A stretch of DNA of 64,000 nucleotides from the NCBI GenBank assembly GCA_023539395.1, contig JAKCEX010000002.1:2680-66679 (forward strand), given 5' to 3'. Numbering within the stretch: the first letter of the stretch is position 1; each line of letters opens with the position of its first letter. Of this stretch, positions 10,286 through 47,639 are shown in pieces. Position numbers and translations under genes: made by a program. The notes beneath the pieces were generated by a model. That model worked only from the letters and a program-made list of their open reading frames with translations, did no database searches and had not been told where the DNA came from. This DNA comes from Candidatus Geocrenenecus arthurdayi (GTDB taxonomy: Archaea > Thermoproteota > Nitrososphaeria_A > Caldarchaeales > Wolframiiraptoraceae).

Positions 10286-10373
10286 GGGCCCGTAGCCTAG
10301 AATGGATATGGCGCCGGCCTTCGGAAGTATTGGAGAAAGCCGGAGGTCGAGGGTTCAAGTCCCTCCGGGCCCG
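10286..10373 (+). tRNA. tRNA-Arg (anticodon UCG) with a 13-nt intron after position 37
   Basis: Hand-folded cloverleaf. Acceptor GGGCCCG/CGGGCCC, D arm GCCT..TGGC with GG in the loop, anticodon stem CCGGC/GCCGG, loop CUUCGGA, variable loop AGGTC, T arm GAGGG-TTCAAGT-CCCTC, discriminator G. There are 20 nt between the anticodon-stem strands, implying an intron at about 10325-10337. No CCA is encoded. Confidence 0.85.
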
Positions 10374-46008: not shown

Positions 46009-46713
46009 GTGTCCGCTAACAAGTTTGAAGAAGATATCTTGAGAACTGTTGAGAAAGCTGTTACATTCTATGGTGGCCAGATATACAGTAGGTTGACGAA
46101 GCTAAGTAGTAAGCTTATCGAATTACATAGGATAAACAAGGTTAAGGTAAACCACTCAGTAATGGAGATCGTTATGGGTGCTTACCTAGTAAACCGTGGC
46201 TATGAGGTATATGTAGAAGAAGAAGTAGGAAACTCTCTTATCGCAGATATTGTAGCGTATAGAAATGGGAAGAGAATGATTATCGAGATAGAGACAGGTT
46301 TTGTATCTCCTGAGAATGCATTAGACCCTCAAAGCTACTTAACGGCTAGAATAATTAGCAAGACTGCAAGATACGGGAAACATGCAGATGTATTCTCTCT
46401 TGCAACACCATTACATAACATACTCCAAATACCAGACCTCTACCTAAAACCATTTAAAGAAAGAAGGAAAGAAGAAACGATTATACTAAAAAACCTATGT
46501 GATAGATACTACTCTAACCCTCCAATAACACTTGAAGATATAGAGAAATCAGAGATTAAATCAATCTACCTATTAAACATCGATACATTAGAGGTAAGAA
46601 AACTAACATTAAGAAAATATGTAAAATCTACAATCTCTAAACTAACCCCCAGAAAAATAGATATCAAAAAATATGTAGAGTGGAGCCAACTCTCGGAGCA
46701 GGTAAGAGCTTGA
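46009..46713 (+). CDS. Orphan protein with a possible PD-(D/E)xK (restriction-endonuclease-like) core
   Basis: GTG start. SVMEIVMGAYL...LIADIVAYRNGKRMIIEIETG fits the helix-E ... hhhD ... hhhExx strand pattern of NucS/Hjc-like nucleases, but the usual Lys is not obvious (EIE). The C-terminal ~110 aa are unassigned. Confidence 0.35.
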   Translation: MSANKFEEDILRTVEKAVTFYGGQIYSRLTKLSSKLIELHRINKVKVNHSVMEIVMGAYLVNRGYEVYVEEEVGNSLIADIVAYRNGKRMIIEIETGFVSPENALDPQSYLTARIISKTARYGKHADVFSLATPLHNILQIPDLYLKPFKERRKEETIILKNLCDRYYSNPPITLEDIEKSEIKSIYLLNIDTLEVRKLTLRKYVKSTISKLTPRKIDIKKYVEWSQLSEQVRA

Positions 46714-46715
46714 AG

Positions 46716-46866
46716 CTCACAACCCCACAACTCCCAGGTTGTGGCCCAATGCTCTCATAGTTACACACCCTGGTTAACCGCTTTCGCGGCGTTGTGAGGG
46801 TGTGTAACTATACACTGTGAGTATACATGTCGAGGCTCCCCCCGACATGTCCCTCAACAGTGTACC
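46716..46866. ncRNA. Candidate highly structured RNA or palindromic DNA element (unknown family)
   Basis: Three consecutive hairpins, including a perfect 15-bp stem (46757-46771:46797-46811). By my hand count it is about 54% G+C in an AT-rich context. The GAAA tetraloop reading favours the minus strand. Details are in the findings. Confidence 0.4.
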
Positions 46867-47165
46867 TGATCCTTTTCCTGTTGGCTCCAATATTTTCTGT
46901 CTAGGTCTGGAAAATAAGGTTTTCGATTATTAGGGGTGTTCTGTAATACTCTTAGATTATCCTAAGATATTCATATGCATGTTCATGTTAATACTGCTCT
47001 CCAATACCGGTTTTCCTTATAAGGTACTTAACAAGTCCATCTTCTATTCTAGAACTACCATCCTCCCTAGTTTAATTCCTCTTAAAGCTAAGTACTTTTT
47101 CGGAACAATATTCGTTTTAGGGAAAGCTTATCTACTATTCTAAACAGTTGATTTAATGAAAAGTT

Positions 47166-47399
47166 ATGACGGTGTATGCCTACGTCTTACTAAGATGTAG
47201 AATGGGGAAATTGAAAGATGTAATCTCTGAAGTGCAGAAGATTGAGAATGTTAAAGCTGCTTATCCAGTAACTGGTAGATTTGATGCAGTAATAGAAATT
47301 GAAGCAGAAGATGTAAAAACGCTATCAAGCCTAGTTATTGAACGTATCCAGGTTATCGAAGGAGTTGAGAGAACAGAAACCCTCCTCTCCTTGGGGTGA
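47166..47399 (+). CDS. Stand-alone RAM (Lrp/AsnC ligand-binding) domain protein
   Basis: A 77-aa protein, AYVLLRC..GKLKDVISEVQKIENVKAAYPVTGRFDAVIEIEAEDVKTL, which is the AsnC_trans_reg C-terminal domain with no HTH. Confidence 0.8.
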   Translation: MTVYAYVLLRCRMGKLKDVISEVQKIENVKAAYPVTGRFDAVIEIEAEDVKTLSSLVIERIQVIEGVERTETLLSLG

Positions 47400-47405
47400 G
47401 GAAAA

Positions 47406-47639
47406 ATGCCTATTCAAGCATATGTATTCATAAGAGTATTGAAAGGTAATGCCAATGCTGTATTGAGAGCTGTTTCAAGGATTAAAGGTGTAAAATCTGC
47501 TAGAATGGTAACTGGAAGATACGATGTTGTAGCATTTGTTGAAGTTGAATCAATCGAAGAACTTGGAAAACTTGTTGCTACAAGGATACATAGAGTAAGA
47601 GGCGTACAATCTACAGAGACAGCGGTTGCTATCACATAA
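47406..47639 (+). CDS. Stand-alone RAM (Lrp/AsnC ligand-binding) domain protein, paralogue
   Basis: A 77-aa protein with the same pattern (AYVFIRV...IKGVKSARMVTGRYDVVAFVEVESIEEL). It starts 7 nt after the previous gene. Confidence 0.8.
   Translation: MPIQAYVFIRVLKGNANAVLRAVSRIKGVKSARMVTGRYDVVAFVEVESIEELGKLVATRIHRVRGVQSTETAVAIT

Follow-up and report, generated by a model that had tools for sequence, protein, structure and literature searches.

A closed, G+C-rich fold beside a nuclease-like gene

The DNA analysed here, referred to as the window, comprises 64,000 nt of contig JAKCEX010000002.1 of Candidatus Geocrenenecus arthurdayi, and all coordinates are positions within it. At 46009-46713 its plus strand carries an open reading frame (ORF) for a 234-amino-acid (aa) protein, and a heavily base-paired element lies across the 3' end of this ORF. 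Sequence comparisons indicate that the element is very probably a real, stand-alone gene on the minus strand for a pseudoknotted noncoding RNA (ncRNA), which may serve as the partner of the adjoining protein.

A preliminary description of this DNA had placed a GC-rich, densely paired element at 46714-46880. Every stem that it listed is present where it was placed (inverted repeats I1, I2 and I4), and both composition and fold strength bear the description out. The G+C fraction is 0.527 at 46700-46849 versus 0.378 window-wide, and the element ranks second among the 120-nt G+C islands of the window, the first being a tRNA gene at 10286-10373. When 46714-46880 was compared with dinucleotide shuffles, z was -6.9 (plus) and -8.1 (minus), and none of 200 shuffles folded equally well. 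The span therefore folds well, but its true boundaries are wider. A perfect 10-bp inverted repeat, TGGAGCCAAC (46681-46690) and GTTGGCTCCA (46880-46889), closes the entire fold, so that the hairpins of 46714-46880 are the interior of a structure of about 209 nt (46681-46889). With this repeat included (46672-46900), z reached -9.7 (plus) and -12.1 (minus), again with 0 of 200 shuffles equally good.

A perfect inverted repeat flanking an element could also mark a feature of the DNA itself, such as a palindromic protein-binding site or a repeat bounded by terminal inverted repeats in the manner of a miniature inverted-repeat transposable element (MITE). However, the element occurs once within the 64-kb window, its supposed terminal repeats covary as an RNA helix in which G·U pairs are tolerated, and its position is kept over phylum-level distances. 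We rejected a MITE or other mobile repeat on the basis of this single copy and of the same syntenic site beside one gene in 46 loci, and a viral or mobile origin because no relatives of the linked protein were found in viral contigs (IMG/VR). The likelihood of a DNA-level feature is practically negligible.

On the minus strand the fold consists of a closing helix (P1), an internal loop with GGAAAAG opposite GAAAG, a second helix (P2) and a four-way junction from which hairpins A, B and C extend. Its predicted parts, in order along the RNA after the transcript and promoter, and the linked gene are as follows.

46666-46892, minus strand: whole ncRNA transcript, predicted at ~220-227 nt, from ~46889-46892 to the T6 tract (predicted ends)
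46911-46925, minus strand: promoter resembling a B recognition element (BRE) and TATA box, CGAAAACCTTATTTT (RNA sense), ending ~22 nt upstream of P1
46880-46889, minus strand: P1, 5' strand, UGGAGCCAAC, a 10-bp perfect inverted repeat with 46681-46690
46873-46879, minus strand: J1/2, AGGAAAA, purine-rich conserved strand of the internal loop, from the alignment
46864-46872, minus strand: P2, 5' strand, GGAUCAGGU, partner 46695-46703
46812-46863, minus strand: hairpin A (H3 of the preliminary description), long and irregular, its apical stem conserved and G-C-rich, its tetraloop GGAG, from inverted repeat and covariation
46757-46811, minus strand: hairpin B (formerly H2), a 15-bp stem, a large internal loop and a 5-bp apical stem with a GAAA cap (46778-46789), from inverted repeat and covariation
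46791-46796, minus strand: pseudoknot 5' arm, CACAAC, in the internal loop of hairpin B (5' side), partner 46726-46731
46704-46756, minus strand: hairpin C, lower stem GAGAGC/GCUCUU and upper stem GGGCCACAACC/GGUUGUGAGCU, holding the former H1 region, from covariation
46726-46731, minus strand: pseudoknot 3' arm, GUUGUG, in the hairpin C apical loop, partner 46791-46796
46695-46703, minus strand: P2, 3' strand, ACCUGCUCC, from fold and covariation
46691-46694, minus strand: J2/1, GAGA (family consensus GAAAG), from the alignment
46681-46690, minus strand: P1, 3' strand, GUUGGCUCCA, inside the annotated tail of the plus-strand ORF, from inverted repeat and covariation
46666-46671, minus strand: T6 tract, likely an oligo-T terminator, beginning 10 nt past P1, from comparison of homologues
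46009-46713, plus strand: linked gene for the 234-aa protein with a predicted PD-(D/E)xK nuclease fold, convergent with the RNA gene, its last ~11 codons overlapping it

The RNA has homologues in several archaeal lineages

We retrieved 80 genome loci and 80 metagenome loci via homologues of the protein, and the collection comprised 166 loci in all. In blastn and nhmmer searches the element lay directly 3' of the ORF homologue. Iterative nhmmer recovered it at 47 loci and a simple descriptor search at 2 more; taken with cmsearch, full-length homologues stand beside the ORF in roughly 50 of the 166 loci. In the window, covariance model R1 matched 46677-46893 on the minus strand with 169.6 bits. 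The covariance model was built from nine sequences and gave 155-193 bits in Aigarchaeota and thermophilic Nitrososphaeria, 52-59 in Terraquivivens, 28-33 in Calditenuaceae-like loci, 20-45 in Bathyarchaeia, and 15-42 in Nitrosocaldus and two Nitrosopumilales-like contigs. From these matches we assign the RNA to a family that spans Aigarchaeota/Caldarchaeales, thermophilic Nitrososphaeria, Nitrosocaldus-type ammonia oxidisers and Bathyarchaeia. It carries no annotation in any record examined.

Two further matches were found in the high-G+C genomes of Calditenuis, at 1996-2142 of L024 and 1991-2137 of L071 (minus strand). They are weak (E 0.49 and 4.7) and lie at equivalent positions ~1 kb upstream of the ORF, and they could be either a diverged relocated copy or noise.

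The minus strand is the predicted RNA strand

The preliminary description had considered a minus-strand RNA at least as plausible as a plus-strand one, and the homologues favour the minus strand on every count. Read on this strand, the hairpin B tetraloop of the homologues is GAAA, GUAA, GCAA or UUCG, whereas the opposite strand gives UUUC, UUAC, UUGC or CGAA. In predicted pairs, G·U outnumbers A·C by 123:56, 161:11 and 39:14 cells in the three clade alignments; in hairpin A, for instance, the G·U pairs turn into A·C if the plus strand is read. Of 29 loci compared, nearly all have a purine-rich BRE and then a TATA-like box on the RNA strand, at a constant distance upstream of P1 and whichever way the RNA points with respect to the ORF; in Bathyarchaeia, L012 and L018 show this promoter less clearly. 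The previously suggested TATA candidate, AAAATATT at 46889-46896, abuts P1 and is too close to it, and we place the promoter at the conserved BRE/TATA instead. The proposal that T6 is a terminator fared better, since an oligo-T tract follows the 3' strand of P1 shortly in most homologues, while none is evident in the Bathyarchaeia and Nitrosocaldus loci. Reading T6 in this way follows from what is generally known of archaeal termination. Because four independent indications agree, namely the tetraloops, the excess of G·U, the fixed BRE/TATA and the downstream oligo-T, we conclude that the RNA is encoded on the minus strand.

The same observations bear on whether the structure could be a plus-strand 3' untranslated region (UTR) element or a terminator of the ORF. 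It begins 3 nt past the stop codon and contains a T4 tract at 46873-46876, as such an element might. On the plus strand, however, the tetraloops are non-canonical, A·C mismatches stand where the minus strand has G·U, and the conserved promoter is on the other side; at the same loci the covariance model scored 155-193 bits on the minus strand and at most 37 bits on the plus strand. We regard a plus-strand element as extremely improbable.

A second conserved motif was seen further upstream. It reads GTATTAC (RNA sense) at 46943-46949, ~55 nt upstream of P1, and the variants GTATTAC, GTCATAC and GTATGAC occur ~20 nt upstream of the BRE/TATA in L002-L009, L013, L069, L076 and L163. This motif may be a transcription-factor site.

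Covariation supports a four-way junction locked by a pseudoknot

The preliminary description had proposed looking for covariation in related genomes, and covariation proved strong in three clades. RNAalifold on nine minus-strand sequences gave 55 pairs, and at 32 of these both partners had changed in a compensatory way. In an alignment of 16 sequences, counted against the structure derived from those same sequences, 78.5% of cells were paired, versus 38-45% when partners were slid by 1-3 columns; double changes occurred at 49 pairs, and the covariation score was reached by 0 of 500 shuffles. Independent alignments of Bathyarchaeia (65 pairs, 19 compensatory) and of Nitrosocaldus-type sequences (78 pairs, 20 compensatory) returned an identical architecture.

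Every helix of the fold is backed by compensatory changes, and individual helices showed the same trend in the 16-sequence alignment. P1 had double compensatory changes at 7 of 10 pairs with 94% of cells paired, and the hairpin C helix (helix 9) had double changes at 12 of 20 pairs with 85.5% of cells paired. The P2 core, GGAG/CUCC, is almost invariant. Across 24 sequences from four clades, G16, A21 and G22 of J1/2 are invariant and G17 and A19 nearly so; G200 and A201 of J2/1 are nearly invariant in the 24 sequences and invariant in the 16 closer ones. We inspected the internal loop between P1 and P2 for kink-turn (K-turn) and loop-E motifs and rejected both, as the GA dinucleotides are in the wrong register.

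In 16 of 16 close homologues, the internal loop of hairpin B (5' side) and the hairpin C apical loop pair over 6-10 bp to give a pseudoknot. Its arms exist in at least six covarying versions (CACAAC/GUUGUG, CUACAAC/GUUGUAG, CACGACC/GGUCGUG, UACGGGC/GCCCGUG, CCAUGAA/UUCAUGG and CGUGAGC/GCUCACG), and cognate loops scored 7.3 compared with 4.5 for non-cognate and 4.2 for shuffled loops. We assessed the pseudoknot sequence by sequence rather than by alignment column; counted column-wise on the MAFFT alignment it reached only 41.7% (helix 7), because that alignment has the two arms out of register. Inspection revealed comparable pairing in the Bathyarchaeia and Nitrosocaldus-type alignments. The preliminary description had thus been right to suspect a pseudoknot but had paired 46791-46798 with 46716-46723, whereas the homologues pair 46791-46796 with 46726-46731. 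Likewise, the region of its hairpin H1 (CCACAAC/GTTGTGG) does form a stem, that of hairpin C, with a different partner: 46736-46747 pairs with the first CACAAC copy (46714-46726), which leaves the second copy (46726-46731) free for the pseudoknot with 46791-46796.

The RNA does not belong to a known family

To our knowledge, very few large structured RNAs are known in archaea beyond rRNA, tRNA, RNase P RNA, signal recognition particle (SRP) RNA and guide small RNAs (sRNAs). At gathering threshold, Rfam 15 matched only the tRNA gene at 10286-10373 in the window and nothing relevant in 34 related loci. With the element from three clades and E<=10, it returned chance-level matches only, of at most 22 bits (microRNA, small nucleolar RNA, Pyrobac-1 and hya). 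The element showed no tRNA or tRNA-like character by the Rfam tRNA model or by ARAGORN, which found no match in the window, and full-text literature searches yielded no description of this RNA or of this protein family. The earlier statement that no RNA family is recognisable thus stands, and the RNA is a previously undescribed family. Neither of the other outcomes that would have spoken against the element was encountered, namely a MITE-like repeat (copy number checked within the window) or a lack of conservation.

One RNA that it resembles is RNase P RNA, whose hallmark is a P4 helix with the conserved regions CR-I (AGGAAAGUC) and CR-V (ACAGAA...) on either side. Like the reduced type T RNase P RNA of Pyrobaculum (Rfam RNaseP-T), the present RNA is archaeal, G+C-rich and about 200 nt long, with a terminal P1, a multi-helix core, long-range tertiary pairing and an A-rich conserved junction. 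A highly divergent form of a universal RNA, either such a minimal RNase P RNA or an SRP RNA fragment, could account for the ~210-nt length, the closing P1, the core and the archaeal host, and the J1/2 motif GGAAAAGGAG is loosely similar to CR-I (GGAAAGUC). However, this sole CR-I-like string is simply J1/2 plus P2; it lacks a partner resembling CR-V, and the hairpins are not joined by single-stranded linkers from which P4 could be built. No RNase P (A, M or T), MRP or SRP family matched at E<=10 in any of three clades. We rejected RNase P RNA on these grounds. Archaeal SRP (7S) RNA is elongated, about 300 nt long, and has an Alu domain and helix 6 and helix 8 motifs; it was rejected given the ~209-nt four-way junction fold found here and the lack of a model match. 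A divergent universal RNA is hence very improbable.

Several other candidates were also discarded. The motifs that define SRP helix 6/8, a bulge-helix-bulge (BHB) intron or a group I intron are either missing or poorly kept among the homologues. An H/ACA sRNA would have an ACA box immediately 3' of a hairpin with a pocket and a K-turn, but none of the hairpins is followed by a conserved ACA (an ACA past P1 occurs in some sequences only), and the alignments show neither a conserved box C (RUGAUGA) nor a conserved box D (CUGA). A riboswitch or other cis-regulatory leader was dismissed because in 41 of 46 loci the RNA gene is followed, on its own strand, by the antisense of the ORF, and because oligo-T follows P1 in most.

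Orphan structured RNAs of the Hgc type were found as G+C islands of A+T-rich hyperthermophile genomes. The present RNA is similar in that it came to light as such an island, second in strength only to a tRNA gene, and has no assigned function. It differs in matching no Hgc family, in being larger, pseudoknotted and linked to a gene, and in occurring in several classes that include mesophilic Bathyarchaeia.

The linked protein has a predicted nuclease fold

The protein encoded at 46009-46713 matched no Pfam or NCBIfam family and no PDB sequence; the searches gave noise below threshold only, including DUF5784 (E>=0.023, 7 of 27 members). Homologues occur in Aigarchaeota/Caldarchaeales, in Nitrososphaeria and in metagenome-assembled genomes (MAGs) of Bathyarchaeota. 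A profile search against 1.84 billion representatives collected 246 clusters at 50% identity; listed members measure 77-286 aa, complete ones about 200-270 aa, and none has a large fused domain.

The AlphaFold2 (AF2) model of the protein has a mean predicted local distance difference test (pLDDT) score of 89.8, falling below 70 over the ~12 C-terminal residues, the stretch that overlaps the RNA gene. Foldseek matched the model to XisH (2okf, 2inb), the CdiA-CT nuclease-toxin domain (4g6v), NucS, Hjc, Bax1 and Cas4, with probabilities of up to 1.00 (XisH and CdiA-CT) yet TM-scores of just 0.3-0.5. Residues E70, D80, E93 and E95 are invariant in the protein alignment. The model and the conserved acidic residues together predict that the protein core has a PD-(D/E)xK nuclease fold, which is characterised by a restriction-endonuclease-like alpha-beta-beta-beta-alpha-beta core with acidic residues conserved on strands 2-3.

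The C-terminal tails in the protein alignment are of different types (EWSQ[LH]SEQ, RAGLRSRV or longer read-throughs). Those encoded at 46678-46713 on the plus strand and in L002-L009, L163 and L165 are the antisense of the RNA gene translated in different frames. As the tails represent one nucleotide sequence in several frames, a conserved nucleic-acid element starts inside the annotated ORF tail. Gene callers run the nuclease ORF into the unannotated RNA gene and so create spurious C-terminal tails.

Linkage points to a candidate RNA-protein partnership

In 46 loci, the distance from the ORF stop to the RNA ranges from -76 (overlap) to +61 nt, with 41 convergent and 5 co-directional arrangements. 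Where Aigarchaeota and thermophilic Nitrososphaeria are concerned, the two genes overlap by 30-76 nt, and in the window they do so by 37 nt. In Bathyarchaeia the RNA gene lies 4-30 nt from the ORF stop, and in the co-directional loci, which are those of Nitrosocaldus and Nitrosopumilales-like contigs, it lies 47-61 nt downstream. The gap in non-overlapping clades is 4-57 nt, where only a UTR could overlap. Other neighbours vary by lineage, being an HtrA-like protease and two AsnC-type genes here, a THUMP methyltransferase and 16S rRNA in a second lineage, and different genes again in the rest. Among loci retrieved via the protein, the RNA therefore adjoins one protein family whatever its orientation or its other neighbours.

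Transcriptomes of Pyrobaculum have been described to include cis-antisense sRNAs overlapping protein genes at their 3' ends, and in the window the RNA gene is similarly convergent with the ORF and overlaps its 3' end by 37 nt. An abundant minus-strand RNA might act on the ORF mRNA by pairing with its 3' end or 3' UTR, and in this way regulate mRNA stability or termination. The overlap of 30-76 nt in Aigarchaeota and thermophilic Nitrososphaeria, and the 4-30 nt between stop and RNA gene in Bathyarchaeia, would carry the mRNA 3' end antisense into the RNA gene, and the first T4 on the plus strand (46873-46876) is near the far end of that gene. This plus-strand tract is CTTTTCC, the complement of the J1/2 sequence GGAAAAG, and the convergent ORF mRNA would meet no oligo-T before it; the ORF transcript may run ~160 nt antisense through the RNA gene before it terminates. 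However, an elaborate, covarying four-way junction with a pseudoknot is more than simple antisense action calls for, and this tertiary fold sets the RNA apart from archaeal cis-antisense sRNAs. Moreover, the Nitrosocaldus-type RNA is co-directional and 47-61 nt downstream, with no antisense relation to the ORF. We therefore abandoned the earlier suggestion of an sRNA mainly antisense to the ORF tail, given the five co-directional loci, and judge cis-antisense regulation to be quite improbable.

The RNA could instead have a housekeeping or regulatory role of its own, unrelated to the nuclease, and owe its position to ancient synteny or to a shared bidirectional termination zone. It has a strong promoter of its own in every lineage, the module is upstream of a 16S rRNA gene in two loci, and the protein occurs with no adjoining RNA in Nitrosopumilus, Nitrosotalea, other loci and one Bathyarchaeia MAG. 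Against this, an adjacency of -76 to +61 nt holds in 46 loci and in class-level clades while all other neighbours change, and it outlasts inversion of the RNA relative to the ORF; synteny by chance seldom persists across such distances. An unrelated ncRNA is unlikely, though it deserves real weight.

We favour a partnership of the RNA with the nuclease-like protein because their adjacency is tight, independent of orientation and conserved across clades, as in tmRNA-SmpB and Y RNA-Ro. Structured ncRNA genes beside the genes of their partner proteins are known from transfer-messenger RNA (tmRNA/ssrA) and smpB, bacterial Y RNA and rsr (Ro), and OLE RNA and oapA. The present module resembles these in having a compact stand-alone RNA with its own promoter and one protein gene adjoining it in either orientation across a wide phylogeny. 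It differs in sharing no sequence or structure homology with tmRNA, Y RNA or OLE (Rfam negative), in a candidate partner with a PD-(D/E)xK fold rather than SmpB, Ro or Oap, and in its archaeal hosts. We put the probability that this is a minus-strand structured ncRNA gene whose product works as the RNA partner of the adjoining nuclease-fold protein at roughly 0.55; the two may interact physically or functionally.

Some points weigh against this reading. We infer the transcription of the RNA, its transcript ends and its abundance, and some of the pair-count measures given above are inflated by the use of a structure from the same sequences. Every locus was ascertained through the protein, so that the collection cannot show the RNA occurring away from it. 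No variable, guide-like segment is obvious in the RNA. Finally, no adjacent RNA was detected beside the protein gene in Nitrosopumilus, Nitrosotalea, Marsarchaeota and some Bathyarchaeia loci; therefore either the partnership is not obligatory, or the RNA has moved or diverged past detection there.

In the favoured reading, transcription would start from the BRE/TATA at 46911-46925 and most likely stop at T6 (46666-46671), yielding an RNA of ~220 nt. This RNA folds from P1 through the purine-rich internal loop (GGAAAAG opposite GAAAG) and P2 into the four-way junction with its three hairpins, and the pseudoknot between the hairpin B internal loop and the hairpin C apical loop locks the fold. 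As a partner it could act as a scaffold for the nuclease-fold protein, as its regulator or gate, or as its dedicated substrate. We tentatively propose, at somewhat less than even odds, a previously unknown ribonucleoprotein (RNP) extending from Bathyarchaeia through Aigarchaeota to Nitrosocaldus, in which the ~220-nt pseudoknotted RNA gates, targets or is processed by the nuclease. Such an RNP would be a new archaeal class with a standing comparable to Ro-Y RNA or SmpB-tmRNA. The RNA occurs in several lineages of class level that abound in hot springs, sediments and soils, and the linkage provides a first functional handle on an uncharacterised nuclease-fold family, through a candidate RNA-nuclease partnership that is directly testable.

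Variation around the module and other features of the window

In Nitrosopumilus and Nitrosotalea, the site beside the ORF was searched for the RNA and proved to be occupied by a small Cys-rich ORF. In Nitrosopumilus (3712-3850 of L026, and the same place in L030 and L040) this is a small Cys/His-rich ORF (MICAACETRKHFECIDCMNNHK...), which looks like a zinc-ribbon mini-protein. In a Bathyarchaeota MAG (6001-6950 of L162), a gene for an 88-aa GIY-YIG nuclease domain begins 5 nt after the nuclease-like ORF and replaces the RNA.

The two loci in which the ORF-RNA module lies upstream of a 16S rRNA gene belong to thermophilic Nitrososphaeria MAGs. In one (6656-8787 of L163) the module is ~420 nt upstream of the rRNA gene with divergent transcription, and in the other (3653-6660 of L007) it is 2.3 kb upstream.

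Elsewhere in the window, the tRNA gene at 10286-10373 on the plus strand (Rfam, 56 bits) contains 16 inserted nt downstream of the anticodon region, which probably represent an archaeal intron, and was missed by ARAGORN in bacterial mode. The two AsnC-type genes near the module (47166-47639, plus strand) are tandem 77-aa genes encoding the Lrp/AsnC ligand-binding domain only, without the DNA-binding domain, and this tandem pair is also kept in the Aigarchaeota loci L001, L165 and L166.

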